Shown: positions 8,287-64,000, counted from the stretch's first letter. The stretch is DNA of 64,000 nt from an uncultured Actinomycetes bacterium (GCA_963704725.1 OY969934.1:608001-672000); one strand, 5' to 3'. Program-made: numbers and translations. Notes: generated by a model from the letters alone, not told the origin.

Positions 8287-8341
8287 GTCGCGAGTGTGCG
8301 CTCAAGACGTGCGACCCGCCAGGTGGGGCGCCGGCGGCGAC

Positions 8342-8490
8342 CGGCGGGCGGGGAGGGCGGTCGCCCCGGGCGTCGTCGAGCGGAGCCGAAGCCGACGGAC
8401 GTCGACGAGCACGGACCACGCGCGTAGGCGGAGACGAGCAGCCCGGGGCGATCCCCCGACCTCAGCCCGCCCCCCCGACCCCCACACGAA
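8342..8490 (-). repeat. Structured ~150-bp intergenic repeat, copy 2 (inverted relative to copy 1)
   Basis: Its reverse complement aligns to 7247-7396, with compensatory changes in the stem arms. Confidence 0.85.
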
Positions 8491-8524
8491 CCCCTCCCAC
8501 CCGTCGTAGAATCACACGCCTGTC

Positions 8525-8650
8525 ATTCCCACCTGATACACAGATACCCACAGGGTTCTCCACATGTGGAATCGCAGGTGGAAGGCACAGTGACAAGGAA
8601 TCTCGGCCCGCGACCAGGGGTGGAGGTTTCCCCATGCGTTATCCGCTGCG
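8525..8650. promoter_or_regulatory. Cluster of DnaA-box-like 9-mers upstream of dnaB
   Basis: Locally AT-richer. TGATACACA 8534-8542, ATACCCACA 8544-8552, TTCTCCACA 8556-8564, reverse box TGTGGAATC 8565-8573, TTATCCGCT 8639-8647 (consensus TTATCCACA). Confidence 0.65.
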
Positions 8651-8716
8651 GTCCTTGCCACGGCGGGGCTAGGGTTCCGCCCGGTCGGGCCGGGCGCGAG
8701 GGGGAGGGGCGAGTTC

Positions 8717-10069: not shown

Positions 10070-10092
10070 CGGTCGCGTAGGCTGCGCGCGCC

Positions 10093-10788
10093 ATGGCGGT
10101 CGACCGGCGACGGGTGCGCGCGATCCACCGGCGCCTCGAGCGGCAGTTCGGCGAGCTGCTTCCCCCGCGCCGGAGCGACCCCCTCGCCGAGCTGATCCTC
10201 ACCGTGCTGTCCCAGCACACGAGCGACCTGAACGCCGAGCGGGCGTTCGACAGCCTCCGGCGCACCTTCCCGGGGTGGGACGAGGTGGTCCGGGCCCGGG
10301 CCGGTGCGGTGGCCGACGCGATCCGCTCCGGGGGGCTGGCGAACACCAAGGCGCCCCGGATCCAGGCGATCCTGCGCGAGGTGCGCGACCGCGAGGGCCG
10401 GTACGACCTGAGCCGGCTCCGCGAGATGGACGACCGCGAGGCCACGGGGTACCTCTCCGCCCTTCCCGGTGTGGGTCCCAAGACGGCGGCCGTGGTGCTC
10501 GCGTTCTCGCTGGGCAGAGACGCCATGCCCGTAGACACCCACGTCCATCGGGTGACGGCACGGCTCGGGTGGATCGATGCGGGGACGAACGCCGAGCGAG
10601 CCCATCGGGTGCTCGAGGAGCTCGTCCCGGCCGAGATCCGCGTCCCCATCCACGTCGGCCTGATCCGGTTGGGGCGGGAGATCTGCAGGGCGGGCCGGCC
10701 GCGGTGCGAGGTTTGCCCGCTGTTCGAGCTCTGCCCCACCGGCGTCGTCGTCCTGGGGCGGGGGGACGAGTCCGACCGTCGCCGGTGA
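10093..10788 (+). CDS. nth: Endonuclease III-family DNA glycosylase (HhH-GPD, 4Fe-4S)
   Basis: LSQHTSD, LPGVGPKTA, PVDTHV.RV and C-x6-C-x2-C-x5-C. Confidence 0.9.
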   Translation: MAVDRRRVRAIHRRLERQFGELLPPRRSDPLAELILTVLSQHTSDLNAERAFDSLRRTFPGWDEVVRARAGAVADAIRSGGLANTKAPRIQAILREVRDREGRYDLSRLREMDDREATGYLSALPGVGPKTAAVVLAFSLGRDAMPVDTHVHRVTARLGWIDAGTNAERAHRVLEELVPAEIRVPIHVGLIRLGREICRAGRPRCEVCPLFELCPTGVVVLGRGDESDRRR

Positions 10789-10825
10789 CGAACGGATCGC
10801 GACGTCGCGCGTATCCTTGCGCCGG

Positions 10826-11032
10826 ATGGCCGGCGGGTTGGCTCCGCGCGCTCGGGCTCGGGACGACGTGACCCCTCTCCTGATCGTGCTCGTCGTCCTC
10901 CTCCTGGGCCCGTGGATCCTCGAGCCCGCCACCCCGCGGGTCCGCCGCACCACCCGAGCCGTCGCCGCGAGCCCCTGCCCTCCGCTCGGCGCCGCGACCA
11001 CCGCCTCGTCTCGACGAACGACCGGCCGGTAG
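10826..11032 (+). CDS. Putative small upstream ORF with a hydrophobic segment (leader peptide candidate)
   Basis: TATCCT (10812-10817) lies 8 nt before ATG 10826. Encodes ...TPLLIVLVVLLLGPW... plus a basic, Thr/Arg-rich tail and ends 63 nt before secE. Confidence 0.4.
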   Translation: MAGGLAPRARARDDVTPLLIVLVVLLLGPWILEPATPRVRRTTRAVAASPCPPLGAATTASSRRTTGR

Positions 11033-11095
11033 TCCTCGGTCGGTCCGTTCGGGGCGCGCTTCGGCCGCCCCCTTCACGAAACGAGGTGCCGAACC

Positions 11096-11305
11096 ATGGA
11101 GCCGTCCCGGCATGAACGCCGATCTCGAGCGGTTCGATTCCTCCTCGAGGTCGCCGCGGAGCTCACGAGGGTCGTGTGGCCCGCCCGCAGGGAGGTGGTC
11201 ATCCTCACGATCGTCGTGGTCGCGACGGTCGCGGTCCTCACGTCGTTCGTCTTTCTCCTCGATGCCGTGTTCGCCCGGCTCGTCCTGAGGGTCCTCGGCG
11301 GATGA
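11096..11305 (+). CDS. secE: Preprotein translocase subunit SecE (non-canonical location)
   Basis: RFLLEVAAELTRVVWPARRE...TIVV...FVFLLD..F, i.e. the SecE amphipathic helix, V.WP hinge and single TM. SD GAGGTG at 11083-11088. Confidence 0.85.
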   Translation: MEPSRHERRSRAVRFLLEVAAELTRVVWPARREVVILTIVVVATVAVLTSFVFLLDAVFARLVLRVLGG

Positions 11306-11360
11306 GCGAGTCGTCGCGGCCGCGACGGCCGGGCCGATGGCCGAGGTTATGCTGCCCGCG

Positions 11361-12362
11361 ATGGCGATCTTCCTCGGCGTGGACGGCGGCGCGAGCATCA
11401 CCCGCGCCGTCGTGGCGGACGAGGGGTATCGGACGCTCGGCGCGGGCGTCGCCGGCGGGTCGAACTGGCCGCTGGTCGGGATCTTCGCCGCCGGTCAGGC
11501 CATCAAGGATGCAGCCGAGAAGGCCCTGTCCGCGTCGGGGAAGTCCGCGGCGGACGTCGACGCCGCGTACTTCGGGCTCGCCGGGGTGGACTGGCCCTCC
11601 GACGTCGATCGCCTGGGCGGGGTGCTCTTCCAGCTCGGGCTGCGCGGCAAGACGGAGATCACCAACGACTCGTTCATCGCCCTGCGCGCCGGGACGAGTG
11701 GCCCCTCGGGCGTGGTCGTGATCGCGGGATCCGGGTCGGTCGCGGCGGGGCGGAACGCACGGGGCGAGGTCTTCCGTACTCTCGGCCTCGGGCCGGACTA
11801 CGGCGAGCTCGGCGGGGAGACCGACATCTCGGTGGCCGCGATCCGCGCCGTGGCGGTCGAGTACACGGGCCGGGGACCCAGGACCGCGCTGACCGAGCGC
11901 ATCTGCGCGGCCGCCGCGTGCCCCTCGGCCGGCGAGCTCCTGGAGCGGGTGAACCGGGGGCTCGCGAACCCCGAGGGTTTCGCCCCCGATCGATTGGCGT
12001 CCGTCGTCTTCGCCGCCGCCGAGGCCGGGGACGCGGTGGCTCGCGAGATCGCGACGCGCGCCGGCACCTCGCTCGGCGAGTCGGTGGCCCTCGTCATCCG
12101 GCGGCTCTCGATGAGCGCCGAGCCCGTCGAGGTCGTCTGCGCCGGCGAGCTCATGCAGATGGCGCACCCGGCGCTACGCGATCCGTTCGAATCCGTCACG
12201 CGCCGCGCGGCTTCGAGCGCCTCCTTCGTCACGCTCCAGACGCCGCCGGCGGCCGGCGCCGTCCTGCTGGCGATGGAGTTGGCCGGGATCTCCACCACCG
12301 AGAGCGGCCGCTCCACCCTCGGGATGACCGCGGGAACCGCCCTGCGTCAGGTGGGCGGATAG
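11361..12362 (+). CDS. BadF/BadG/BcrA/BcrD-type ATPase, N-acetylglucosamine/sugar kinase-like
   Basis: FLGVDGGAS.T, FGLAGVD, ITNDS.IAL and VVIAGSGS. TATGCT lies 7 nt before ATG 11361. Confidence 0.85.
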   Translation: MAIFLGVDGGASITRAVVADEGYRTLGAGVAGGSNWPLVGIFAAGQAIKDAAEKALSASGKSAADVDAAYFGLAGVDWPSDVDRLGGVLFQLGLRGKTEITNDSFIALRAGTSGPSGVVVIAGSGSVAAGRNARGEVFRTLGLGPDYGELGGETDISVAAIRAVAVEYTGRGPRTALTERICAAAACPSAGELLERVNRGLANPEGFAPDRLASVVFAAAEAGDAVAREIATRAGTSLGESVALVIRRLSMSAEPVEVVCAGELMQMAHPALRDPFESVTRRAASSASFVTLQTPPAAGAVLLAMELAGISTTESGRSTLGMTAGTALRQVGG

Positions 12363-12415
12363 CGCCGGTCTCCGTCCGAAGGCCGAGCCGAGCCGGGGAC
12401 GGAGGAACGAGAGAG

Positions 12416-12486
12416 AGCGGGCGAGGGGAATCGGACCCCCGTCTCGAGCTTGGGAAGCTCGCGTTCTGCCATTGAACCACGCCCGC
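12416..12486 (-). tRNA. tRNA-Gly(CCC)
   Basis: Cloverleaf GCGGGCG-TG-GTTC/GAAC-CGAGC-TTCCCAA-GCTCG-AGAC-GGGGG-TCCGATT-CCCCT-CGCCCGC-T. CCA not encoded; -10 TACACT upstream. Confidence 0.93.
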
Positions 12487-12569
12487 GCGGCCCGCTCGCC
12501 GAGGCGAGCGGATCGCCAGTGTACCGAGCGTCGCGTGGCGCCGGGAACACCTGCTAGCCTCCGGGCCCG

Positions 12570-13598
12570 ATGGCCGACGTGGACCCCGACTTCTGGCCGC
12601 GGGCGCTCTCGAGGATCGCGGCGCACGAGGCGCTCACGGCCGACGAGTCCGCCGAGGCGATGCGGCAGGTGATGTCGGGGGAGGCCACGCCGATCCAGCT
12701 GGGCGGCCTGTTGATGGCGCTTCGCACGAAGGGCGAGACCGTCGACGAGATCGAGGGGTTCGCCCGCACGATGCTGGCGTTCGCGAACCCCGTCCGCCCG
12801 CCGTCGCCCGTCGTCGACACCTGCGGGACCGGCGGGGACCGCAGCGGCACGTTCAACATCTCGACGGTCGCGGCGATCGTCGTCGCCGGCGCCGGCGTCC
12901 CGGTGGCCAAGCACGGCAACCGCGCGGCCTCCTCGCAGTGCGGCTCGGCGGACCTGCTCGAGGCGCTCGGCGTGCGGATCGAGCTCGAGCCGGAGGGCGT
13001 CGAACGATGCCTGGCGGAGGCCGGCATCGCGTTCATGTTCGCGCCCGTGTTCCACCCGGCGATGCGCCACGCCACGCCCGTGCGCCGGGAGCTCCGCGTG
13101 CCCACGGTCTTCAACTTCCTCGGACCGCTCACGAACCCGGCGGGTCCCTACGCGCAGGTGGTGGGGGTCTCCGATCCGCGCATGGTGCCGTTGATGGCGG
13201 AGGTGTTGGCCCGGCGAGGGGTGCGCGCCCGCGTCTTCCGGGGCGCCGACGGGCTCGACGAGCTCACGACGACGGGGCCGTCGACGGTGTACGACGTCGC
13301 CGACGGGGGGGTCCGGCAGTCGACCTTTTCACCGGAGGACTTCGGGGTTTCGTCGGCCTCGCCGGAGGACCTGCTGGGCGGCGACGTCGACCGCGCCGTG
13401 GAGGTCGCGCGGTCGATCCTCGGCGGCGAGCCCGGCCCCAAGCGCGACGTGGTCCTGGTCAACGCGGCCGCGGCGCTCGAGGTCGCCGGGAGCGCGCCCT
13501 CCTTCGCCGAGGCCCTGGACCTCGCGGCCCGCTCGATCGACTCCGGCGCGGCCGCTGCGACCCTGCACCGATGGATCGCGGTCTCGCGGACCGGGTAG
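12570..13598 (+). CDS. trpD: Anthranilate phosphoribosyltransferase
   Basis: DTCGTGGD, FNIST, KHGNRA.SS.CGSAD.LE, NFLGPL.NP and DGLDE. Confidence 0.96.
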   Translation: MADVDPDFWPRALSRIAAHEALTADESAEAMRQVMSGEATPIQLGGLLMALRTKGETVDEIEGFARTMLAFANPVRPPSPVVDTCGTGGDRSGTFNISTVAAIVVAGAGVPVAKHGNRAASSQCGSADLLEALGVRIELEPEGVERCLAEAGIAFMFAPVFHPAMRHATPVRRELRVPTVFNFLGPLTNPAGPYAQVVGVSDPRMVPLMAEVLARRGVRARVFRGADGLDELTTTGPSTVYDVADGGVRQSTFSPEDFGVSSASPEDLLGGDVDRAVEVARSILGGEPGPKRDVVLVNAAAALEVAGSAPSFAEALDLAARSIDSGAAAATLHRWIAVSRTG

Positions 13599-13610
13599 CA
13601 TCGCCCGGCG

Positions 13611-14189
13611 ATGATCCTGTCGGACGTCGACATCCGCAAGGAGCTCGCCGCGGGGCGGATCCGGATCGATCCCTTCGACGAGACGTGCGTGCAGCCGTCC
13701 TCGGTCGACCTCCACGTCGATTCGCAGTTCCGCGTGTTCGCGAACTCGCGCTACCCGTACATCGACGTCCGCGCGCCGATGCCCGATCTCACCGAGCTCG
13801 TCGAGGTGAGCGGCGAGGACCCGTTCATCCTGCACCCCGGGGAGTTCGTCCTGGGCTCAACCCGCGAGCGGGTGGCGGTCCCGGACGACCTGGTGGCGAG
13901 GCTGGAGGGCAAGTCGTCGCTCGGGCGGCTCGGGCTGCTGATCCACTCGACCGCCGGCTACGTCGACCCGGGGTGGGACGGCTACCTCACGCTCGAGCTC
14001 TCGAACGTGGCCAACCTGCCGATCACGATCTACGCGGGCATGAAGATCGGACAGATCTCGTTCTTCCGCCTGTCGAGCCCGGCGGAGAACCCGTACGGCT
14101 CCACGGAGACGGGGAGCAAGTACCAGGGTCAGCGCGGGCCGACGGCCAGCCGGTTCTTCGAGGAGTTCCGGCGGCCCGGCGAGGGCTAA
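13611..14189 (+). CDS. dcd: dCTP deaminase
   Basis: [39 protein letters not shown] and KYQGQ.GPT.SR. Confidence 0.97.
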
Positions 14190-17100
14190 CCGTCGTTCAG
14201 ACGGGACAGCGCGTCCTGCGCCGCTGCGACGACGCCGGGGATCGGATCGCGGAGCAGCCCCATCAGCGCCTCGCGGGCGTTCGGGTCGCCCACCTCCGCG
14301 AGGAGCTGGGCGGACCGGGCTCGGATCCGCTCGTCGGGGTCGGACACCGATCGCAGCAGGGCGTTGACGGCGGCCGGTCCTCCGATCGCGCCGAGCGCCT
14401 CGACCCCTCGCAACCGCCGCTCGGGCTCGACCGCGTCGAGCCGGGAGAGGAACTCGTCGGGCTGAGAGATCCGCTGGAGCAGGTCGCCGACCGTGGGGAC
14501 CACGGCCGGGTTGTGCTGCATGAGGACGTCGATCAACAGCTCGACCGCGGGCGGCCCGATCCGCGTGAGCAGGTCGGTGGCCGCCTCGCGCAGCCTCGGG
14601 ACGGCCAGCACGCCGGCCAGCCGTCGTGCCACGGCCGGTGAGCTCCACTCGGTGAGCACGTGGCTCGTGACGTCCCGCACCCGCGGGTCGGGGTCGTTCA
14701 GGGCCGAGACCAGGAAGCCCAGCACCGCCTCGTCGTCGATCACGCCGAGGGCGCGAACGACCCCGATCCGAACCTCCGGGTCCGGATCGCCGAGCGCCTT
14801 GCCGAGCGCGTTGGCCGCGGCCGGGTCGTGGAGCCGGCCGAGCGCGACCGTCGCCGTGCGCCGGACCTGCGCCGCGGGATCGCCCAACGCCTGGATCGCG
14901 CCCTCGACGCAGCCGGGGCTCGCTCCCCACCCGCAGACCTCGACGGCGAGGATCCGTTCCTCCAGCTCGGGGGAGCGGAGCCGCTCGAGCGCGATCTGGG
15001 TGAGCGAGCCGCTCCGGACCCGCTCGAACGAGGCGATGATGTCGCCGCGCCCGGAGTCCGGGGCCCGCCGGAGCGCGGACCAGATGAGCTCGGGATCGGC
15101 GGCCCGCCCGGCCAGACGCTTCGACGCGGCCAGGCGTACCCGGTCGTCCTGATCCGAGAGTGAGGACGTGAGCGCGTCGATCGCCTCAGGGCCGTCGACG
15201 TCGGGCAGCGTCTCGATCGCGGTCGCGCGGACCTCGGGATCGGGATCGGACAGCGCCCGCACGATGACGGCCGCGGGGGGAGCGGTCGTGAGCTGGGAGA
15301 GCACGCGGACCGCCCGGGCCCGGACCACCGGCGAGACGTCGGTCTCGAGGGAGATCCGCACGACGTCCACGGCGGAGGGGTCCCCCGACTCGGCGAAGAC
15401 GTCCAGGATCGCCTGGCGCATGGGGGCCGACGGATCGTCCAGGTAGGGCCGCAGGTGCGGGAGGACCGGCGGGCCGCCGATCTGCCACAGCATCCGGATG
15501 GCCTCCGGCTGGGACGTCGGATGGACCTGGGGGAGCAGGGCGGCGAGCTGATCGGGCGGCATGACGAAGGACCTCAGGGCGTCGACGAGGCTGTGACGCG
15601 CGTCGACGGGGAGCACGGCCGCGGCGTCGAGGATGTCGGCGGCGCCCTCGACCAGGCGAAGCTGGTAGGCCGTCGAGGCGGCGAGCGAGAGCTGCCCCGC
15701 GTCGCCGGTGCCGATCGCGTCGCGTACCCAGGACGCGAGCGCGGCGCGGTCCATGCCGGCCAGCCCCGAGAGCGCCAGGTGGCGAACGGTCGCGTCGTCG
15801 TCGAGCAGCGCGCGCGCGAGCGAGGCGATCCGGTCGGTGCCGTCGTCGAGCTGGGGGGACTCGCCCAGCGGGATCCGCTCCCGCGCCGACTCGGCCTGAA
15901 GGAGCTCCTCGACCGCGGCGGTGGCCACCTCGCGGATCTCCTCGAGGGGATCTCCGTTGTGGGTGGCCAGCTCGCGGAGCACGTCCGGCGAGCGATCGTG
16001 CGAGAGCAGCCGGATCGCGCCGAGGCGGGGGACGTCCGGCCACGAGAGCGCGTCGAGGACGCGGTGCGACCCGAGCGCCAGCGCGAGCTGTCCCATGGCG
16101 GGACGCTCCTCCGGCAGCGGGCCGGGGTCGAGGTCGCCGACCGCCGCCAGCACGCGGCGCATCGCGTCGTCATCGACCGTCGACGCCGAGGTCACCTCGG
16201 GCAGCAGACGAAGGACCGCGCGGTGGGTGAGCGGCCAGTCACGGGCCACGAGCAGCGGCGCGATCTGGGCGACCTGGCCACGCTTGGCCGCGAGCTCGAC
16301 CGCGACCTCGCGCACCTCGTCGGTGGGGTCCTGCAGGGCCTGGCGGATCGCATCCTCCTGGACGCGGTCGGGGCGGCGGGCGAGCGTCTGCAGCGCCAGC
16401 CGACGGATGTCGGTCTCGGGATCGAGCAGCACGGCCTCGATCCGGTGCGTGTCGGCCTCGGACAGGTCGTGGGTCGCCAGCTCCTCGAGCGCGACCCGAC
16501 GCTCGTGCGGATCCGTGGAGACGAGGGAGGGAGCCGGCGGCTCGACGTCGACGGGAGCCTCGGCGGCCGGCTCGGGCTCGGCCGGCGGATGCGCCGGCAT
16601 CTCGAACGAGGGGGCCTGCTCGAAGCTCCCCGGATCCGCGTCGCCGAACGACGGAGCTTCGTCCTGCGGAACCGAGGCCTCGACACGATCCTCCGGGTGC
16701 GATCCCTCCTGGAGCCAGGACGCAGGGAGCTCGGCCGTGGGGTCGGCCACCTCGGGCGGAGCCTCCCGCGGCTCGAGGACCTCATCGAGGTCGCCCGGCG
16801 GCGCGAGCTCGGGGAGGTCGGCGAGCTCGGCATGCTCCGGCTCGACATCCCCGATCGTCTGGGACTGCTCGAACGGCTCCCCGGGCCGGTGCGTCTCGGC
16901 CTGCTCGAAGGCCGGGATCTCGTCGAGGTCGCGGCGCTCGGGCTCGACCTCGGCGGCGCCGTGCGTCTCCTCCAGGGGCGGTCCGGCGGGCACGCCCTCC
17001 TCGACGGGCGGAACCACGTGCAACCGGGGCGCGAGGTCGCCCTCGAACGGCGCGGCCGCGAACCGATCCTGCGGTGTGACGTCCGGTTCGCGCTCGTCCC

Positions 17101-17404
17101 GCTCGGGGCGATCCTCCTGGTGCTCCCATGGCTGCGGCGTGTCGGCCGCTTCCACGGCGGCGGCCTCGGCCTCCAGCGGTGCCGGCTCCTCGGGCTCGGG
17201 CTCCTGCCTCTCCTCGAGCTCCTCCTCCGGAGCGGCCAGGGGCTGCTGCCGCTCCGCGAGGGCCCGGAGGCTTCGATACCAGTCCTCTTCGTAGGCCTCG
17301 CGGTCGTCGCGTCCCGCCGACATGACGTCGGAGCCGTGCGACCTGGCGTCGTCGGTGCCGTCGGTCGAGCGAGACCCGAGCAGTCCTTGCTTGTCAGCCA
17401 TCAT
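14186..17404 (-). CDS. Large HEAT/PBS-lyase-repeat protein with an acidic Pro/Glu-rich N-terminal region
   Basis: About 300 aa of low-complexity E/P/A sequence, then many L.D.D..VR..A...L repeats (e.g. [35 protein letters not shown]). Confidence 0.88.
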
Positions 17405-21493: not shown

Positions 21494-22453
21494 ATGGGAG
21501 CGCGACCGGTCGACGAGAAGGAGACGCCCGTGCAGGAGCGCGCCGAAACGCCCGCCGCTCGTCTGATCACCGAGGTCGCCGGGTACGTGGGAGCCACCGC
21601 CGCGCTCGTCTCGGCGTTCGCCTTCCTCGCGCTCATCGAGGCCGACGAGACGGGGGTGTTCGCAGCCTTCGCCGCCGCGACCGGGGTCCTCGTGGGCGGC
21701 GGATTCCTGATCGGCCGGACCTCCGTCGACGCCTACCAGCGGCTGCGCAGCGTCCTGTGGTTCGGGTCCGTGTTCGCGCTCAGCCTGGCCCTCGAGGCGC
21801 TGTTCGTCGGCGTGCTCGACCTGGTGGACGATCAGTCGAGCGCCCAGACCGTGACCCTGCTCACGGGCGCGGTCGTGGCGGTGTCGGCGTTCTTCTTGTG
21901 GCTCCGGTCGCAGCGGGCCCTGCAGCTGCTGGCGCTGCACCTGGCCCTGCTCGGCGTGGTGACGGCGATCGTCTACACGACCGCCGACCCCCTCACCGGT
22001 CCCGGCGGCGGGGTGGTCGGCGTCGTCCTGTGGCTGTTCGGGGTGGTCTGGATCGGGGTCTCGGCCGGCGGCCTCGCCCCGGCCCCCGTCCAGACGGCCC
22101 TGGTGCTCGGCGGGCTCACGGCGCTGGCCGGTCCCTACGCGGCCGCCGCGCCGTCGGATCTCGGGTATCCGGTCTCCCTCGGCGGCGCGGACCTGTGGTC
22201 GTTGGCCACGGCGGTCGGGTTGCTGTGGCTGGGGACGACGCGAGGGTTGCGGGGCCTCCAGGGTGTCGCCATCGCGGGGGTCCTCGTGGGCACCGGGACG
22301 ATCCTCACGGACCTGGTGAGCACGAAGGCGACCGCGGCCGTCGCCCTGGTGATCGGAGCGGCCCTGCTCGCCGCGGCGCTCGTGCAGATCCGTCACCTCG
22401 CCGGGCAGCAGGTGCCCACCCCGCCCCTCCTGCCGCCACCGCCGCCGGCCTGA
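21494..22453 (+). CDS. Polytopic membrane protein (DUF2157-like)
   Basis: Many TM segments, N-terminal [10 protein letters not shown] and a Pro-rich C-terminus. Family assignment tentative. Confidence 0.65.
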
Positions 22454-57024: not shown

Positions 57025-57100
57025 TGGTGGCCAGGGGCAGAATCGAACTGCCGACACCGCGGTTTTCAGCCGCGTGCTCTGCCATCTGAGCTACCTGGCC
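57025..57100 (-). tRNA. tRNA-Phe(GAA)
   Basis: GGCCAGG-TA-GCTC/GAGC-CGCGG-CTGAAAA-CCGCG-GTGTC-GGCAG-TTCGATT-CTGCC-CCTGGCC-ACCA. Confidence 0.96.
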
Positions 57101-57148
57101 CTGCGTCGAACGCCGGCCCGAAATGGCGGCCGGCGTCTCGTCGCATCG

Positions 57149-57223
57149 CGCGGCTGACGGGCTTCGATCCCGCGATCTTCGCCTTGACAGGGCGATGAGG
57201 ACTCCGGACTCCTCCACAGCCGC
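57149..57223 (-). tRNA. tRNA-Asp(GTC)
   Basis: GCGGCTG-TG-GAGG/CCTC-TCGCC-CTGTCAA-GGCGA-AGATC-GCGGG-ATCGAAG-CCCGT-CAGCCGC-G; atypical T-loop. Confidence 0.9.
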
Positions 57224-57238
57224 GTATTCGGTTGTCGG

Positions 57239-57311
57239 TGCCCCCAACGGGATTCGAACCCGTGTCGCCGCCTTGAAAGGGCGAAATCCTAGGCCACTAG
57301 ACGATGGGGGC
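57239..57311 (-). tRNA. tRNA-Glu(TTC)
   Basis: GCCCCCA...TCGCC-CTTTCAA-GGCGG-CGAC-ACGGG-TTCGAAT-CCCGT-TGGGGGC-A. -10 TATACT upstream; first of the Glu-Asp-Phe cluster. Confidence 0.95.
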
Positions 57312-57472
57312 CCGGGCGCCGGGGACAGCCGACGCAGTATAGCCTCCCGCCTCGGGCCCTCCCATCGGGGAGCCCGGAGCCGCCGACGCGGGCCGCTCGA
57401 GGCCGATCGGTCCCCGGCTACGAGGTCCTCCGGCCCTGCGTGCAGGCATCGGGCCGCCCGAACCTAACGGGC

Positions 57473-58021
57473 GTGAGGCGTCTCCTGCTCGTCACCGCGC
57501 TCCTCGCCCTCGCCGGCTCGGCCTGCGCCGAGGCCGCGAGCCCGGGCGGTCCCGCCGCGAGCGGTGGGACGCCGGCCCCGTGGGCCGAGCGCGATCCCGT
57601 CGTCTACTCCGTCGTCGTGGCCGAGGTGCTCGACGACCTGGGGGCGGCCCCGGGGGTGGTGTTCGTGGTCGACGGCGTGTGCCCACAGGCGGGCCAGGTG
57701 GACCCGGGAGAGCTCTCGTGTAGCGGTTCGATCCCGTCCGACGGCAAGGCGGCCCTGCAGGCCCAGCTCGAGCGGTACGCCCGGGTCGAGTTCGTCGACA
57801 CGGCCGAGGCCGCCCTGGGCGACGACGGCGCGGTGCGGGAGGACGGGGTGCTGTTCTGGCTGGGGCCGCTCAAGGACCGCAAGAACGGCGAGGTGCGCGT
57901 GGGCGCGAACTACGCTCGCCGGCTCTCGGGCGAATCCCTCGGCGTGAACCTGGCGATGACGGACCAGGGCGGATCCTGGATCGTCACCGGCGCCGCCGGG
58001 CTCGGCGGGTGCCCGGCCTGA
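57473..58021 (+). CDS. Putative lipoprotein, unknown function
   Basis: VRRLLLVTALLALAGSA-C signal/lipobox with GC-typical codon usage. Confidence 0.7.
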   Translation: MRRLLLVTALLALAGSACAEAASPGGPAASGGTPAPWAERDPVVYSVVVAEVLDDLGAAPGVVFVVDGVCPQAGQVDPGELSCSGSIPSDGKAALQAQLERYARVEFVDTAEAALGDDGAVREDGVLFWLGPLKDRKNGEVRVGANYARRLSGESLGVNLAMTDQGGSWIVTGAAGLGGCPA

Positions 58022-58344
58022 GCCGGGACGAGCTCGTCACCCACCCGCAGATCCACGTCCATCGAGCACTCGAGCACGTGCTGCGCCCGGCGCATCGGCG
58101 ACAGGAGTCGCCTCGGTGCCACGGTCCGCAGGTCCACCACCCGGAGCGATCCGTCGAGCCGCGCCACCACGATCGGGAACCGCATCCCGAACGTGTGGAC
58201 CGAGGTGGCGCCGGGGAACAGGAGCGCCTCGTCGGCCGCGAGACGGTCCGCCCCACGCAGGCCGGCGGAGCGTTCGCGCCATCGCAGGGCCACCCGGCAT
58301 CGCAGCCTCGCCCCGCGGGGGCCGGTCAACACCACGTGCCTCAC
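57910..58344 (-). CDS. DUF192-family protein
   Basis: GLRG...EALLF....SVHTFGMRFPI.V..LD...V...P.R.....A..VLE. TAGGGT lies 7 nt before the GTG. Its 3' end overlaps the convergent lipoprotein gene. Confidence 0.75.
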   Translation of the reverse strand: MRHVVLTGPRGARLRCRVALRWRERSAGLRGADRLAADEALLFPGATSVHTFGMRFPIVVARLDGSLRVVDLRTVAPRRLLSPMRRAQHVLECSMDVDLRVGDELVPAQAGHPPSPAAPVTIQDPPWSVIARFTPRDSPESRRA

Positions 58345-58397
58345 GCCGGCGACCCTAGCGTGACCCGCCGACAGCCCAAGGCCGACACGTCACACAG

Positions 58398-58472
58398 TGG
58401 GCCGGGCAGGATTCGAACCCGCGACACGAGGGTTAAAAGCCCCCTGCTCTGACCTGGCTGAGCTACCGGCCC
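58398..58472 (-). tRNA. tRNA-Lys(TTT)
   Basis: GGGCCGG-TA-GCTC/GAGC-GGGGG-CTTTTAA-CCCTC-GTGTC-GCGGG-TTCGAAT-CCTGC-CCGGCCC-A; -10 TAGACT upstream. Confidence 0.95.
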
Positions 58473-58621
58473 CGGGCCGAGTCTACGGCGGCGTGATGGC
58501 CGGATCCCGCCCTCGGCCCTCTCGCCAGCCCCGCTCCGGGCACCGTAGCGCCAATACCCCAAGGAGCGCATGCCCTCGTCGTCCCTACCCCCGTAATGTC
58601 GGCCGATCAGAGGGGGATCGC

Positions 58622-60496
58622 ATGTCGCGTCAGACCACCGTAGCCCCGGGCGATGCCGGCACGACGCCGGCCGGGGATCGTCTGGAGGAGATCTGGGCGG
58701 GACTGTCCCGGTTCAGTCGGTGCGAGGATGCGAACGCCGGCCGGGCGGAGGAGCAGGCCTTCATCGACACGCCGGCCGGGCCGGTCTTCGTCACGCTCGT
58801 CGAGCCGCTCGGGCGCCGGCGAGATGTCGGATTCCTGGTCTGCCACTCCTTCGCCTTCGAACAACTCGACCTGTTCCCGCTGGAGCTGACGTTCGCTCGG
58901 TTCGCGGCCTCGTCCGGTTTCCCCGTCCTGTACCTCCAGGCGCGGGGGTACGCCGACTCCGGCGGCGATCTCGGCGAGGCGACCGCGACCACGCAGCTCC
59001 GCGATACCCTCGCCGCCGCAGAGCATCTGCGGGCGAGGGGCCACGTCCGCCACGTGGTCCCGGTGGGCGTCCGGTGGGGAGGGGCGATCGCCCTCATGGC
59101 GGCGGACCGCCTCGACGCGCCCGGCGTGGCCCTGTGGAACCCCGCCGTGGAGCCCGGCGCGTACCTGGACGACCTCCTCCGCGTGTTCTCGCGCTCCCGG
59201 ATCGCCGGGAAGGGGCGCGATCCCGCGGCGCCCGAGGGCCCCAGCCGGCAGCAGCTTCGAGCGATGCTCGAGCAAGGGGGGCAGGTCGACCTGTTCGGCT
59301 TCCCTCTGACGTCGCGCTGCTACGGCGACGCGGCCTCCGTGCATCCTCTCGACACCTCGTCGCCGGCGCCCGGCCAGGCGCTGGTCGTCGTGGTGAACCC
59401 CCGGGTCCGGCCCGAGGTCGAACGCACGGCGCGACGGCTCCGCGAGCGTGGCGCCGAGGTCCACGTCGACGAGGCTGAGGGCCCCGGGCGGGCCCAGTTC
59501 GCGCTGGGTGCGAGTCCCGCGGGCCGGCGCGTCGTCGCCGGCCAGACGCTCTTCGAGGACGTGGCGAGGCGGACCGTCGACTGGGCGCTCGAACGGTGGG
59601 ACGGCGTTGCGAGTGAGCCCGTCGTCTCGAACGGCGGAGCCGCCGCCTCCACCGCCCCAGTCGATCCGGCACCGAGACCCGAGGCCGACGTCCTCGAGGT
59701 GCCCGTCTACGTGGACAGCCGAGGCGAGCGGCTCGGAGCGGTCGTCACGGTGCCCCGGGATGGCGGCTCCACCCTCGGTGTCGTGCTGCTGGCCAGCCGG
59801 GCGCGCGATCGAGCCCATCGCAACGGGATGTGGGTGAAGGCGGCACGAACGCTCGCGGGAGATGGGCTGTACGTGCTGCGGCTCGACTACCCGGGTGTTG
59901 GGAACTCGACGGGCTCGCCGCGCATGTTCGGTATGGAGGACATGCCCTCCTGGGCGGTCGACGACGCCTGCGCCTTCCTCATCGACCACACGCCGGTCCG
60001 CAGGATCCTCCTGGCGGGCACGTGCTACGGGGCCAGGGTCGTTCTCGACGCGGCGCCGAGGATCCCGACGGTGGACGGCGTCGCGATGATCGTCGGCCCG
60101 ATCATGCGACCGCTGTCGTCGAGGACCAAGCTCCGCTTCCGGCTGGCCGGCCTCATCGGCAGACGCGCCCGCGGGAAGGACCCGGCCGCCGAGGCGGGCC
60201 GCCCCGCGCCCGGCGCCCGAGCCCAGCGCCGTCGGATCGACCCGGCCTTCGTCCGGACGCTCAAGCGCTACCTCGCGCGGGGGCGCGTGTACTTCCTGTA
60301 CGGGGACCGCGACGTGTACTGGGAGGAGCTGCGCTTCACGCTCCAGCGCCTGCGGCTGACCGAGGATCGGCATGAGGTGGATCTCGTACCGGGGGAGATC
60401 GACTCCTTCCGATCCATCGACATGCAGGCGATCGCGCGCGACCGACTGGTGGCGTGGTGCCGTCGTGCGGCCGCGGAGTTGCGAGAGGTGACGTGA
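58622..60496 (+). CDS. Tandem (fused) alpha/beta-hydrolase-fold protein
   Basis: Domain 1: GFPVL....GYADS.GD with elbow G-V-R-W-G-G. Linker. Domain 2: G..VLRLDYPGVGNS.G with elbow G-T-C-Y-G-A. Confidence 0.85.
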   Translation: MSRQTTVAPGDAGTTPAGDRLEEIWAGLSRFSRCEDANAGRAEEQAFIDTPAGPVFVTLVEPLGRRRDVGFLVCHSFAFEQLDLFPLELTFARFAASSGFPVLYLQARGYADSGGDLGEATATTQLRDTLAAAEHLRARGHVRHVVPVGVRWGGAIALMAADRLDAPGVALWNPAVEPGAYLDDLLRVFSRSRIAGKGRDPAAPEGPSRQQLRAMLEQGGQVDLFGFPLTSRCYGDAASVHPLDTSSPAPGQALVVVVNPRVRPEVERTARRLRERGAEVHVDEAEGPGRAQFALGASPAGRRVVAGQTLFEDVARRTVDWALERWDGVASEPVVSNGGAAASTAPVDPAPRPEADVLEVPVYVDSRGERLGAVVTVPRDGGSTLGVVLLASRARDRAHRNGMWVKAARTLAGDGLYVLRLDYPGVGNSTGSPRMFGMEDMPSWAVDDACAFLIDHTPVRRILLAGTCYGARVVLDAAPRIPTVDGVAMIVGPIMRPLSSRTKLRFRLAGLIGRRARGKDPAAEAGRPAPGARAQRRRIDPAFVRTLKRYLARGRVYFLYGDRDVYWEELRFTLQRLRLTEDRHEVDLVPGEIDSFRSIDMQAIARDRLVAWCRRAAAELREVT

Positions 60497-61842
60497 CCCT
60501 GGCGACGACTCCCTCCTCCTCGACACGCCCGTTCCCCACGCCGCTCGAGGCCCTTCGGTCCTTCCGAGCCGACCCCCTCGGCCTGCTCCTCGGGCTCGCG
60601 AGGGAGCGAGGAGACGTCGTCTCGATGGACATGGGGCGGTTCCACGTGTTCCTGCTCAGCCACCCCGACCACGTGAAGGACGTCCTCGTGGTCAACCACG
60701 CGCGGTTCGAGAAGGGCGACGTCCTGCTGGAGGCCAAGCGTCTCCTCGGCGACGGTCTGCTGACCAGCGAGGGCGAGCTCCACCGGCAACAGCGCCGGTT
60801 GATCCAACCCGTCTTCCATCATCGACGGATGGCGGAGTACACGGACCTCATGGTCGAGCGGGCGGCGCGGGTCACCGACGGATGGCGCGATGGCGAGGTG
60901 GTCGACGTCCCCGACGCGATGGTCCTGCTCACGATGTCGGTGCTGGCGAAGACCGTTCTGGACGCCGACATCGAGGACCACGAGGCTCGGCTGACCGGCC
61001 GCGCTCTCGCCACGTGCCTCGACATGTTCGGACGCCTCGCGTCGCCCTACGCGCGGCTCCTGGACCAGATCCCCTCGCGCAGGAACCGGGAGTTCGAGTG
61101 GGTCCTCGGGGTCTTCGACGAGATCGTCGTGCGGTTGATCGAGGCGCGGCACACCGCCGGCACCGACGGCGGCGATGTGCTCTCGCAGCTCATGCGGGTA
61201 CGAGACGAGGCGACGGGCCGGGCCATGCCCGATCGGCAGCTCCGGGACGAGGTGCTCACGTTCATGGTCGCCGGGCACGAGACCTGGTCCAACTCCCTCG
61301 CTTGGACCTGGTACCTGCTCTCGCAGAACCCGACGGCGCGCGAGGCCATGGAGGCCGAGCTCGACGAGGTCCTCGGAGAGGACCGGGCCGACGCCGACGC
61401 CGCTCGGGCGCTTCCGTACACGAACGCGGTGTTCACCGAGGCTCTCCGCCTGTACCCACCGGCGTGGACCGTGGGGCGCAAGGCGCTCGTCGATCACACG
61501 ATCGGCGGGCACGCGATCCCCGCAGGCTCGATCGTGCTGATCTCTCCGTACGTCGTTCACCGGGACCCGCGATGGTTCCCCGAGCCGTCGGCGTTCCGGC
61601 CCGAGCGCTGGCTCGGCGAGGCCGTCGGTCGGACCCCGACCTTCGCCTACCTCCCGTTCGGCGCGGGCCCGCGCGTCTGCATCGGGCAGCCGCTCGCCAC
61701 GCTGGCCGGCGTCCTGTTCCTGTCGACGATCGCGCGCCGGTGGCGGCTCGATCTCGTTCCCGGTCACCCGGTCACCCCGGAGGCACCCCTCCTCCGGCCC
61801 GCCCATGGCATCCCGATGATCGCTCGGGAGCGCGATCGATGA
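60493..61842 (+). CDS. Cytochrome P450
   Basis: GLLTSEG, I-helix AGHET, ExxR (EALR), FRPERW and heme motif FGAGPRVCIG. GTGA overlap. Confidence 0.97.
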   Translation: MTLATTPSSSTRPFPTPLEALRSFRADPLGLLLGLARERGDVVSMDMGRFHVFLLSHPDHVKDVLVVNHARFEKGDVLLEAKRLLGDGLLTSEGELHRQQRRLIQPVFHHRRMAEYTDLMVERAARVTDGWRDGEVVDVPDAMVLLTMSVLAKTVLDADIEDHEARLTGRALATCLDMFGRLASPYARLLDQIPSRRNREFEWVLGVFDEIVVRLIEARHTAGTDGGDVLSQLMRVRDEATGRAMPDRQLRDEVLTFMVAGHETWSNSLAWTWYLLSQNPTAREAMEAELDEVLGEDRADADAARALPYTNAVFTEALRLYPPAWTVGRKALVDHTIGGHAIPAGSIVLISPYVVHRDPRWFPEPSAFRPERWLGEAVGRTPTFAYLPFGAGPRVCIGQPLATLAGVLFLSTIARRWRLDLVPGHPVTPEAPLLRPAHGIPMIARERDR

Positions 61843-63533
61843 CCGCCGTGGCGGCGACGCTCGCGGAGGCACTCGAGTCGGCCACGACCACGCCATCCGA
61901 GCTCGTGTTCCACCTCTCGGGGGGCGAGACGCGGGTCCCCGCGTCCGCGCTGTTGGAGCAGGCCCGGGCCGGCGCCACAGCCCTTGCGGAACGCGGGGTC
62001 GGCCGTGGCGACACGGTGGGCATCCTTGGCCCGAACGGGCCGCAGTGGGCGCGGTGGGCGTTCGCCGCATGGACGGCAGGGGCGACGGTCGTCCCGCTCC
62101 CGTACCACCTTCGGACCCGCGACTCGGAGGCCTTCCGCGAGCAGCTCGGGGTCCTGGTGCGAGCGGCGGGCTGCCGGGTGGCCCTGGCCGATCCCCGCTT
62201 CATCCCCTTCCTTCCTCCGGGCCTGGGCTTGGAGTGGGACGCCGAGCTCCCACGAGCCGTCCCCGCTCATGTGCGGGAGCCCCGTCCGGAGGACGTCGCG
62301 GTGATCCAGTTCACCTCGGGCAGCACGTCCATGCCGAAGGGCGCGACCCTGTCGCATCGCGCCGTCCTGGCGGGGGTGCGGAACTCCGCGGCAGGGCAGG
62401 GTCTCGACTCGGCCTCGTGCGTCCAACTCTCCTGGCTCCCCTTCTTCCACGACTGGGGGTTGTTCGGCTACCTCGTGTGGGCGGTGGTGTTGGGGACGCA
62501 GACGCACGTCCTGCCGACCGAGCGCTTCGCCCGGGACCCGTCGGAGTGGCTGCGCCTGGTCGGCAGGGTCGGAGCGACGCAGACCCCCGGCCCGACCTCG
62601 GCCTGGGACGCGGCGCTCCGCGTCGCGAGCCGCCGGCCCAGGGACATCGATCTGTCCACGCTCCGGGCGTGCACCATGGCGGCAGAGGCGATCGAGCCTC
62701 GGGTTCTGGACCGGCTGCTCGAGCAGGGGGCCCGGCTCGGCCTGCGCCCCGAGGCGCCCAACGGGGGCTACGGTATGGCCGAGTCCACGCTCGCCGTGAC
62801 CGTGGGTCGCGTGGACGAGCCCATCAAGGTCGACTCCGTGGATCGGCAGGAGCTCGTGTCGGCCGGCCGTGCCTCGCCGGGCGAGGGACCGGGCGCCAAA
62901 CGCGTCGTCTCCTGCGGTCCCCCGGTGCCGGGCGCGGAGGTGCGGATCGCGGGTGGGAACGGCCGGGCGCTCGAGCGCAGGGTTGGAGAGATCCTCCTTC
63001 GCGGACCGTCGCTCACGAACGGCTACCTCGGAGACGACCGTGGCCTCCCGTTCGTCGACGGCTGGCTGTGCACCGGCGACCTCGGCTATGTCTCCGACGG
63101 TGAGCTCTACGTCACGGGGAGGATCAAGGACATCGTCATCGTCATGGGCCACAACTACCCGGCCCAGGACCTCGAGTGGGCCGCCGAGCGGGTCGAGGGC
63201 GTCCGCGTCGGGCGGAGCATCGCGCTCGCCACCACCGAGACGGAGGGGGAGGCGGTCGTGATCGTTGAGCCGAGCGGGGCCGTCGACGTCGCCGGGCTTC
63301 CGCGGCGGGTGTGGCGGGCGGTCGCCGACGCCATCGGGGTCGTCCCACGCGAGGTCGTCGTGCTCGCGCCGGGGTCGGTTCCGATGACGACGAGCGGGAA
63401 GCTCCGCCGGAGCTGGGTTCGGGACTCCTACGTGGCGGGCGATCTCGATCCGCTCGTGCTGGCCCGGGGCCCGGCCTCCGCAGGCCCGGCCGAGGGTGTG
63501 GCGGCCGAGGTACCGGCCGAGGTGCAGGCGTGA
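61839..63533 (+). CDS. Fatty acyl-AMP ligase (FAAL)-type adenylation enzyme
   Basis: IQFTSGSTSMPKG, SWLP.FHD.GL, YGMAESTLAVT plus FAAL-type segment VDRQEL...SCG.P, TGDLG, GRIKD and TTSGK.RR. ATGA overlap. Confidence 0.92.
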   Translation: MTAVAATLAEALESATTTPSELVFHLSGGETRVPASALLEQARAGATALAERGVGRGDTVGILGPNGPQWARWAFAAWTAGATVVPLPYHLRTRDSEAFREQLGVLVRAAGCRVALADPRFIPFLPPGLGLEWDAELPRAVPAHVREPRPEDVAVIQFTSGSTSMPKGATLSHRAVLAGVRNSAAGQGLDSASCVQLSWLPFFHDWGLFGYLVWAVVLGTQTHVLPTERFARDPSEWLRLVGRVGATQTPGPTSAWDAALRVASRRPRDIDLSTLRACTMAAEAIEPRVLDRLLEQGARLGLRPEAPNGGYGMAESTLAVTVGRVDEPIKVDSVDRQELVSAGRASPGEGPGAKRVVSCGPPVPGAEVRIAGGNGRALERRVGEILLRGPSLTNGYLGDDRGLPFVDGWLCTGDLGYVSDGELYVTGRIKDIVIVMGHNYPAQDLEWAAERVEGVRVGRSIALATTETEGEAVVIVEPSGAVDVAGLPRRVWRAVADAIGVVPREVVVLAPGSVPMTTSGKLRRSWVRDSYVAGDLDPLVLARGPASAGPAEGVAAEVPAEVQA

Positions 63534-63805
63534 AGGAGGCGATCGCCGCCTACATCGCCGAGGAGATCCTCGGAGACGAGACCCCAACGGACCTCACCCA
63601 CGACACGCCCCTCCTGTCCTCGGGCCTGCTGGACTCCCTGTCCGTTGAGCAGCTCCTCCTGTTCCTGGAGGACGAGATCGGGGTCCCCTTCGAGGAGGAC
63701 GACTACTCGGCCGAGAACTTCGAGACGATCGACGCGATCGATCGCCTCGTCCAGCGCAAGATGGGGTCGGCTGCTTCCGATAGGAGTGGTGGGAACCCCA
63801 CCTGA
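63530..63805 (+). CDS. Acyl/peptidyl carrier protein
   Basis: TPLLSSGLLDSL (phosphopantetheine Ser), FLEDE.GV and ENFETIDAI. GTGA overlap. Confidence 0.92.
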   Translation: MKEAIAAYIAEEILGDETPTDLTHDTPLLSSGLLDSLSVEQLLLFLEDEIGVPFEEDDYSAENFETIDAIDRLVQRKMGSAASDRSGGNPT

Positions 63806-63850
63806 GCACCTCGCGTCCAAGCGGAGCCACCGACTCCGTGAGGTGATCTC

Positions 63851-64000
63851 GTGAAACCGAACGCGAAGTGGGGTGCCGCCGGACTGATCCTCGGGCTCGC
63901 GATCGCACTGACGCTCCCGACGATCGCCCAGGAGTCACCCAGCCCCGAGACGGGGAGCTCCGACAGGACCGTCGCGACCAACGGCGCCGCCATCATCCGG
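63851..64000 (+). CDS. Secreted protein, probably SIMPL/DUF541 family (truncated by the window end)
   Basis: SD GAGGTG and GTG 63851: VKPNAKWGAAGLILGLAIALTLPTIAQ...DRTVATNGAAIIR (signal peptide, then an RTV...G strand). Confidence 0.55.
   Translation, partial: MKPNAKWGAAGLILGLAIALTLPTIAQESPSPETGSSDRTVATNGAAIIR

Follow-up and report, generated by a model that had tools for sequence, protein, structure and literature searches.

Four overlapping genes in a stretch of 64,000 nucleotides (nt) from an uncultured Actinomycetes bacterium (GCA_963704725.1 OY969934.1:608001-672000; 'the window' hereafter denotes this whole stretch) encode a fused double alpha/beta-hydrolase-fold protein (gene 1), a cytochrome P450 (gene 2), a fatty acyl-AMP ligase (FAAL; gene 3) and a carrier protein (gene 4). 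No description of a set of FAAL, P450, carrier protein and fused hydrolases of this kind was found in the literature, and the systems that come closest each share some of its parts. One is the cassette associated with exosortase A, which comprises hydrolase 2 (hydr2; TIGR03101), hydrolase 1 (hydr1; TIGR03100), an acyl-CoA ligase (TIGR03098) and an acyl carrier protein (ACP); in the loci related to the window, too, the pair adjoins a ligase and a carrier protein, often among polysaccharide genes. Gene 1 resembles P0052, a protein that scores near the TIGR03101/TIGR03100 cut-offs, in having Arg at the elbow of hydr2 and Cys at that of hydr1. The window departs from this cassette in scoring far below the cut-offs, in the fusion of hydr2 to hydr1, in a FAAL that is not of the TIGR03098 type, in the addition of a P450 and in its actinomycetotal host, with no exosortase in the 64-kb window. 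The exosortase-A hydrolase models are graded 'hypoth_equivalog', and no functional study of these hydrolases was found in the literature, including a text look-up in Haft 2006 (PMC1569441).

Mycobactin lipidation offers a second likeness, through a FAAL (MbtM), a dedicated ACP, an oxidoreductase acting on the tethered chain (MbtN, an acyl-ACP dehydrogenase) and a transferase; MbtL is the ACP and MbtK the acyltransferase of that pathway. The window has a P450 in place of the flavin dehydrogenase, a Cys-bearing alpha/beta-fold pair in place of the GNAT transferase and no siderophore genes nearby, and at 276.9 bits, where the cut-off is 621, gene 3 does not qualify as an MbtM equivalog, although MbtM is among its best NCBIfam matches. 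The pyrrolyl-carrier systems PltF/PltL/PltE and PigI/PigG/PigA are approached from another side, in that gene 4 is PltL/PigG-like and sibling cassettes combine PigA/RedW-like dehydrogenases with adenylation (A) domains; in the window, by contrast, the loader is a FAAL, the oxidoreductase is a P450, the putative transfer pair is a two-domain Cys/pseudo-enzyme protein and antibiotic scaffold genes are absent. CmaE and SyrC use an active-site Cys, a point for which a search for published support found none. According to PMC8748450, CouN7 moves a carrier-bound pyrrole acid to its final scaffold and CmaE shuttles carrier-bound aminoacyl groups, and OlsI is presented in PMC12493201 as an alpha/beta-hydrolase-fold O-acyltransferase. 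The best model for gene 4 is named 'ACP_for_OlsHI' and gene 1 shares the hydrolase fold of OlsI, but the window lacks a GH3-like OlsH and gene 1 matched no OlsI model at E<=0.01.

The four genes and their conservation

The four genes lie on one strand, as follows:

58622-60496, plus strand: gene 1, fused double alpha/beta-hydrolase-fold protein, 624 aa (own gene call and a call based on G+C at third codon positions, GC3)
60493-61842, plus strand: gene 2, cytochrome P450, 449 aa (open reading frame (ORF) calls start at 60454/60493)
61839-63533, plus strand: gene 3, FAAL, 564 aa (ORF calls)
63530-63805, plus strand: gene 4, carrier protein, 91 aa (ORF calls)

Direct reading of the junctions gives a 4-nt overlap at each: GTGA between genes 1 and 2 (60493-60496), ATGA between genes 2 and 3 (61839-61842) and GTGA between genes 3 and 4 (63530-63533). 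Overlaps of this kind point to translational coupling. A purine-rich, Shine-Dalgarno-like stretch precedes the start of every gene, and all four, with a GC3 of 0.89-0.90, were recovered independently by the GC3-based call. The original prediction, made from the sequence without database searches, had described four genes joined by three 4-nt stop/start overlaps between a tRNA-Lys and a secreted-protein-like gene, which the ORF calls and junction reading confirm. It had also noted the lack of a ketosynthase (KS), condensation-domain or desaturase gene, and a Pfam scan of 74 window ORFs likewise found none of these domains.

A pattern scan of one genome per species, with alignment A2 as its basis, yielded 30 loci (numbered with the prefix L) from 22 metagenome-assembled genomes (MAGs), 29 of the loci in Actinomycetota and one in Chloroflexota, and the gene set was mapped in them by tblastn with the four window proteins. 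The full set is adjacent in L001, L002, L029 and L030, all Actinomycetota. L001 and L002 keep the window's gene order (identities of 57, 70, 71 and 66%) together with its upstream side (BCKDH genes, a tRNA cluster and a DUF192 gene), and L029 and L030 have the order P450-FAAL-ACP-hydr2-hydr1 (65, 62, 51 and 32%), with the ACP stop overlapping the hydr2 start in L029 and with flanks that comprise a two-component system, a weak cupin-like ORF, an ECF sigma/anti-sigma pair and an M15 peptidase. In L004 and L010 the contig begins with FAAL-ACP-hydr2-hydr1, so that a P450 may have been cut off, and the flanks contain P-II and APS kinase respectively. The four-gene set lies in at least three different neighbourhoods. 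No ketosynthase, condensation or polyketide synthase (PKS) acyltransferase domain was found by Pfam in the 388 ORFs of the 30 loci, whose flanks extend up to 10 kb, the only loosely related matches being an ordinary SDR and an SRPBCC protein, both in L006. The proposal of a self-contained set therefore stands, as it is kept as a unit in different neighbourhoods with no PKS or nonribosomal peptide synthetase (NRPS) domain in the 30 loci or the window, and the contrary expectation, that homologous clusters would always carry an adjacent PKS or NRPS, fails.

The ligase, the carrier protein and the P450

Gene 3 matches Pfam AMP-binding at 197.3 bits and contains the core motifs of the ANL enzymes, namely TSGST-x-x-PKG, YG-x-AE, TGD, GR-x-KD and a catalytic Lys near the C-terminus, the invariant positions in the ligase alignment A3 being T159, S160, G161, T163, P166 and K167, G413 and D414, G427 and R428, and K521. 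Its best NCBIfam models all score below their cut-offs (PRK07768, 366.9 against 572; the fatty acyl-AMP ligase PRK09192, 338.5 against 600; and MbtM, as given above), and among solved structures it comes closest to 3pbk, 'Fatty Acyl-Adenylate Ligase' (6.8e-66, residues 7-531). The hallmark of a FAAL is an insertion of about 20 residues after the YG-x-AE motif, and a run of this kind, defined as positions with a gap in at least five of six sibling ligases, lies at:

62820-62885, plus strand: FAAL insertion, gene 3 residues 328-349 (22 residues; alignment A3)

The 22-residue insertion is present in the ligases of the window, L001, L029 and L030 and absent from the sibling ligases, and the alignment to 3pbk crosses the stretch with only two one-residue gaps inside it. 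The assignment as a FAAL that had been made by eye is borne out by the insertion and this alignment to the extent that gene 3 is a predicted FAAL-like ANL adenylating enzyme.

Gene 4 is a weak match to Pfam PP-binding (18.0 against a cut-off of 20.8), a threshold that its close homologues in L004 and L010 pass (26.2 and 26.3), and it also matched NCBIfam carrier-protein models, of which 'ACP_for_OlsHI' is the best (4.5e-15, 55.8 bits against a cut-off of 130). Its closest solved structure is PltL (2.3e-10), PigG was matched too, and the site of phosphopantetheine attachment is conserved:

63635-63637, plus strand: phosphopantetheine Ser36 of gene 4, in L-D-S-L (D35-S36 invariant in 15 of 15 aligned carrier proteins)

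Gene 2 encodes a complete P450 (Pfam p450, 257.8 bits against a cut-off of 22.8) with the heme motif FGAGPRVCIG, the I-helix motif AGHET and EALRLYPP:

61678-61680, plus strand: heme Cys396 of gene 2, in FGAGPRVCIG (invariant among 8 aligned homologues)

Its start at GTG 60493 agrees with the N-termini of five of seven close homologues. The public protein record of gene 2 (P0161, 405 aa) begins 44 residues later (window 60493-60627), and because its start lies downstream this annotation misses the 4-nt overlap with gene 1. The relatives of gene 2 comprise 21 proteins at 56-76% identity, followed by a large family near 50%, and its nearest solved relatives are 7wzl, 3dbg ('Putative cytochrome P450', which we take to be CYP170A1), LUT5 (which we take to be CYP97A3) and P450 BM3; nothing was found in the literature on 7wzl. 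The best NCBIfam models, albaflavenone monooxygenase and pentalenene oxygenase, are both below cut-off. BioI, a P450 that acts on acyl-ACP and is encoded beside genes that make acyl-ACP, had been invoked as the precedent for this gene; it holds as a mechanistic precedent but not as a relative, since the nearest structures are those just named and no BioI-type (CYP107H) model or structure is among the matches listed for gene 2.

A pseudo-enzyme fused to a Cys enzyme

Gene 1 matches Pfam Hydrolase_4 at residues 94-187 and Abhydrolase_1 at residues 403-510, with no evident signal peptide. The best NCBIfam model for its N half is TIGR03101 (1e-18, 67.8 bits against a cut-off of 202.75) and that for its C half is TIGR03100 (1.5e-17, 63.8 bits against 168.45), both named as exosortase A system-associated hydrolases, and the same two models are best for all 13 relatives tested; with scores under the cut-offs, gene 1 is to be placed as a predicted relative, not a member, of these families. 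The features that bear on its activity are:

58622-59641, plus strand: N half, residues 1-340, hydr2-like pseudo-hydrolase (motif C74-H75-S76-F-x-x-E80-Q81; G149-x-R151-x-G153 replaces the nucleophile elbow)
59072-59074, plus strand: R151 codon, Arg at the nucleophile position (G-V-R-W-G)
59642-60493, plus strand: C half, residues 341-624, hydr1-like (G466-T-C468-Y-G470, D564, D594)
60023-60025, plus strand: Cys468 codon, nucleophile position of the C half
60311-60313, plus strand: D564 codon, acid position of the C half
60401-60403, plus strand: D594 codon (GAC), at the family's triad His position

In the N half, R151 aligns with the nucleophile Ser of the solved hydrolase 9pic and with C468 of the C half, and the position is Arg in 107 of 127 family rows and Ser in two. 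In the C half, the catalytic residues of 9pid (Ser as nucleophile, Asp as acid, and His) align with C468, D564 and D594. Cys468 is present in 70 of 75 family rows, the remaining five being gaps, and in all 31 alignable locus copies; the acid is D or E in 59 of the 75 rows. The triad His is found in 42 of the 75 rows but in just three of 29 alignable locus copies, most copies from Actinomycetota being without it: the window protein reads GEIDSF where five of its ten closest relatives read GEIHSF or the near-identical AIHTF or TVHSF, and Asp at 594 is shared by the window protein with four of its nine closest relatives. A canonical Ser-Asp-His triad with G-x-S-x-G is absent from both halves of gene 1. 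Two candidates for further active-site residues were tried and rejected. No His co-varies with the change at 594 as a compensating residue, just R274 and L498 tracking it; and Cys74 aligns with the residue before the 'HG' oxyanion motif, which is also Cys in 9pic ('MCHGF'), and is probably structural.

The two halves are distant paralogues (BLASTP E of 0.008; hhalign probability 98.7%, E 4.7e-16). Taken together, the motif states indicate that gene 1, far from being two hydrolases, joins a conserved pseudo-enzyme to a Cys enzyme whose active site is unconventional. The label 'fused double hydrolase-fold' is right as to the two alpha/beta-hydrolase folds and wrong if taken to mean two active hydrolases, given R151 in the N half and C468 and D594 in the C half.

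An exhaustive HMMER search of 1.84 billion representatives found 4435 relatives of gene 1 at E<=1e-3, fused and split. The particular fusion seen in the window is rare: 5.77 billion protein clusters include eight relatives at 55-62% identity. The domain make-up of 157 proteins was N-type only in 84, C-type only in 32, an N-C fusion in 35, CN in two, NCC in two, NCNC in one and NN in one.

A constant core with exchangeable loaders

Within the 30 loci, hydr2 and hydr1 are adjacent or fused, always with the N half before the C half, in 28, the other two (L003 and L026) ending at a contig edge; fusion is confined to the window, L001, L002 and L006. That the halves are paralogues and are fused in some loci argues that they may work as one complex. 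A carrier protein homologous to gene 4 occurs in 18 of the 30 loci and an AMP-binding enzyme in 17, and whatever the cassette type, the carrier proteins belong to a single family. Five loci (L007, L008, L012, L013 and L014) have, in this order, a carrier protein, an acyl-CoA-dehydrogenase-fold protein, a ligase, hydr2 and hydr1, except that the carrier follows hydr1 in L013, and two of them serve as examples:

L012:6881-11763: sibling cassette
L014:2726-10700: sibling cassette

An NCBIfam scan covered two of the dehydrogenases (L012 and L014) and four ligases (L012, L014, L016 and L027). Both dehydrogenases are PigA/RedW-like (433-445 bits against a PigA cut-off of 500), the RedW model being named 'L-prolyl-[peptidyl-carrier protein] dehydrogenase', and all four ligases pass the adenylation-domain model TIGR01733 (330-403 bits against 317; 402-403 in L012, L014 and L016), with TIGR03098, the exosortase-A-associated ligase, second best at 284-350 bits. 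L022 encodes an ACP and an enzyme of the benzoate-CoA-ligase family (423 against a cut-off of 375), and in L028 shikimate-pathway genes stand beside the hydr pair and an ACP. On these family assignments, the hydr2/hydr1 pair with its PltL-like carrier is the apparent constant core, to which the loaders are an A domain with a PigA-like dehydrogenase, an aryl-acid ligase, or a FAAL with a P450; the acids borne by the carrier proteins that the pair accompanies thus appear to be of three kinds or more. The P450 takes the slot that is held in sibling cassettes by the PigA/RedW-like dehydrogenases, a family named for carrier-bound substrates.

By hand tally, 11 of the 30 loci (L008, L013, L014, L015, L016, L019, L020, L021, L022, L024 and L025) contain glycan genes, which encode a Wzx flippase, a Wzy polymerase, a Wzz chain-length protein, a CapD-like protein, a glycosyltransferase or a sulfotransferase. 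Three of the six MAGs with a FAAL-type cassette also carry sibling hydr2/hydr1 loci, in two of them with glycan genes (L015; L019 and L022); in the third, L023 has just a phosphodiesterase-family ORF beside the hydr pair.

Some sibling loci deserve separate mention. The cassettes of L008, L013 and L014 sit among sulfotransferase, APS kinase, sulfatase, glycosyltransferase and Wzz-type genes, and look like candidates for the loading of a pyrrole-type acid onto a sulfated glycan; no literature description of pyrrole-type cassettes in such a setting was found. L019 has three tandem hydr2/hydr1 pairs (8332-13856), and L022 has two pairs (537-2368 and 9851-11661) in the same MAG as L019 and the FAAL/P450 cassette L030. 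The hydr pairs of L005, L009, L022 and L028 lie beside DUF3179 proteins, CmlS-like FAD enzymes and shikimate-pathway genes, which suggests a putative aryl-acid version of the cassette. L006 (9941-12940) encodes a fused hydr2-hydr1 protein of 999 aa with a C-terminal extension of about 380 residues, followed by an 88-aa ORF, and neither the extension nor the ORF had a Pfam match at E<=0.1.

Proposed route and its alternatives

Our favoured reading, held tentatively and at a little under an even chance, is that the four genes make up a self-contained module, dependent on its carrier protein, in which a fatty acid is activated, oxidised and handed over. What the analysis shows is which genes make up the set and how they are conserved, along with their domains, motif states and genomic contexts; the chemistry set out next we infer. 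Firstly, the FAAL would adenylate a free fatty acid and load it onto Ser36 of the dedicated carrier, as its family, the FAAL insertion and the adjacency of the genes suggest. Secondly, the P450 would oxidise the tethered chain, most likely by hydroxylation, a step proposed because the P450 fills the sibling slot of a PigA/RedW-like dehydrogenase, whose curated models are named for carrier-bound prolyl. Thirdly, the hydr1-like C half would take the acyl group from the carrier thioester onto Cys468 by thioester exchange. Finally, the catalytically dead hydr2-like N half, with its Arg151, would serve as an obligate partner, and the acyl group would pass to an acceptor other than water. The genes around the sibling cassettes point to a cell-surface polysaccharide precursor as the possible acceptor. 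More doubtful is the wider proposal that the hydr2/hydr1 pair and its PltL-like carrier constitute a two-component acyltransferase, a Cys enzyme with an Arg-bearing pseudo-enzyme as its partner, that decorates envelope glycans or lipids with whatever acyl group the loader provides (pyrrolyl-type, aryl or fatty), the window holding the lipid-installing version, which would yield, in uncultured Actinomycetota, an envelope component acylated with a P450-oxidised fatty acid.

The alternative that survives best, and one that we consider unlikely, has the same loading and oxidation with gene 1 acting as a thioesterase, so that an oxidised fatty acid (hydroxy, epoxy or dicarboxylic) would be released in free form and might serve as a signal or as a membrane-active lipid. 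Gene 1 does have a hydrolase fold, the nearest solved relatives of its halves are esterases (cinnamoyl and chlorogenic acid esterases and monoglyceride lipase among them), and no acceptor gene is conserved beside the FAAL-type cassettes. However, the nucleophile is Cys and not Ser in every alignable member, neither the window copy nor most of the others from Actinomycetota have the His that would activate water, a conserved pseudo-enzyme, for which a simple thioesterase would have no need, makes up half of the protein, sibling cassettes lie inside polysaccharide loci, and there was no Pfam Thioesterase match in gene 1. Since the Cys is invariant, the His is often lost, the pseudo-enzyme partner is conserved and siblings lie among polysaccharide genes, we infer transfer to be favoured over hydrolysis. 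OlsI, CouN7 and CmaE provide precedents for transferases, of the hydrolase fold or related to it, that use carrier-bound acyl groups.

The FAAL-ACP pair and its P450 could instead supply a starter in trans, feeding a PKS or NRPS elsewhere in the 3.45-Mb genome while gene 1 edits or shuttles the chain. Priming of PKS/NRPS lines is the role of most FAAL-ACP pairs that have been characterised, gene 3 has MbtM among its best matches, and the view given here spans 64 kb of the genome; yet a KS or condensation domain occurs in none of the 30 related loci, within up to 10 kb, and in none of the 74 window ORFs, and the constant partner of the carrier is the hydr2/hydr1 pair and not a synthase, which makes this supply role improbable. 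A polyester or estolide route, in which the P450 makes hydroxyacyl-ACP and the Cys enzyme joins the hydroxyacyl units as do the polyhydroxyalkanoate (PHA) synthases with their G-x-C-x-G box, has in its favour the G-T-C-Y-G box, a P450 that could supply the hydroxyl and the lack of a separate acceptor gene, but is highly improbable, as no PHA synthase model matched and the siblings load pyrrolyl-type or aryl acids, neither enzyme name of which would imply an esterifiable hydroxyl, so that the family-wide reaction is more likely transfer to a separate acceptor.

It is worth noting, however, that several observations weigh against the module of activation, oxidation and hand-over, or against parts of it. 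The P450 belongs to a large family (7546 proteins at E<=1e-60 among 8000 candidates scored), the nearest of its relatives to have been characterised take free terpenoids or fatty acids as substrates, and no ferredoxin or reductase for it is encoded within the cassette. None of the matches to TIGR03100, TIGR03101 or the FAAL and carrier-protein models reaches the curated cut-off, and with Asp in place of His at 594 conventional catalysis of either transfer or hydrolysis is not assured. The original prediction had envisaged transfer or release, with an acylated envelope polymer among the products; the hydrolase family does adjoin loaders, often in polysaccharide loci, but glycan genes are found in none of the seven FAAL-type cassette flanks (window, L001, L002, L004, L010, L029 and L030), for which reason the envelope polymer as acceptor is borrowed from the sibling cassettes, and no acceptor-making gene is conserved beside the FAAL-type cassettes. 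Finally, in the tree of either half the FAAL-type cassettes have their hydrolases at three separate positions, which indicates that the association of loader and hydrolases has not always been kept. In the N-half tree, at least four label changes are required by well-supported branches; an unfinished 'quick' tree of the C half requires at least two. The branch that bears the window clade is long. Identity between the window and L029/L030 is 62-65% for the P450 and FAAL, as against about 32% for the hydrolases, so that the P450-FAAL-ACP triad appears to have been combined with different hydrolase lineages.

Boundaries and surroundings of the cassette

The upstream side of the cassette is delimited as follows:

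58397-58472, minus strand: tRNA-Lys(ttt), upstream boundary of the cassette
58473-58621, plus strand: intergenic leader from tRNA-Lys to gene 1, 149 nt, with the Shine-Dalgarno-like motif GAGGGGGA directly 5' of ATG 58622

A scan of 58300-64000 for sigma-70-like promoters and terminators found none, Rfam returned tRNAs only, with no other family in the leader (58473-58621), and the PADLOC defence models gave 0 matches. Downstream, an ORF with a GTG start at 63851 and an N-terminus that, read by eye, resembles a signal peptide runs past the window end; it is not counted in the gene set because in L001 and L002 an M28 peptidase on the opposite strand takes that position. The G+C content of the window is 72%, and that of the cassette is the same. 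A genomic island at the tRNA-Lys was considered and rejected on this equality, the absence of an integrase and the identity of the upstream neighbours in L001 and L002.

In the window the tRNA-Lys(ttt) immediately precedes the cassette, but in L001 and L002 (near 21600-21700) its place is about 6.5 kb downstream. The Phe-Asp-Glu tRNA cluster and the DUF192 gene are unmoved between the window (57025-58472) and L001/L002, so that the shift of the tRNA-Lys is a local rearrangement. In L029 (6135-6497) and L030 (2094-2489), where the hydrolases are split, the conserved small ORF that weakly resembles cupins (E about 2e-4, below cut-off) stands just upstream of the P450, and it is absent in the window. 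Outside the cassette the window is housekeeping in character (rpsF-ssb-rpsR-rplI, dnaB, dnaK-grpE-dnaJ-clpB, purine biosynthesis, branched-chain 2-oxoacid dehydrogenase and the tRNA cluster). Two adjacent GT87-like membrane glycosyltransferases beside two-component regulators (417-2854, minus strand) and a HEAT-repeat protein of 1072 aa (14186-17404, minus strand) were also observed.

Significance

A FAAL-ACP pair is usually read as a PKS/NRPS primer; here it is tied to a P450 and a Cys-based hydrolase-fold pair, with no synthase seen, and comparative context ties that hydr2/hydr1 pair to a catalogued cassette of polysaccharide loci. Were gene 1 merely a thioesterase, the cassette would be an ordinary small operon for fatty-acid oxidation. 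If the acyl group is transferred, as we favour, the cassette would represent a general route for placing unusual acyl groups on envelope polymers, and if the pair is indeed a two-component acyltransferase, the same chemistry would explain the ligase/ACP/hydrolase cassette of the exosortase-A polysaccharide loci. The cassette is also a small, testable four-gene system in which to study a pseudo-enzyme with Arg in place of its nucleophile and a Cys active site without His. The general logic of the cassette is familiar, and what the set does is to open a widespread enzyme pair to testing.

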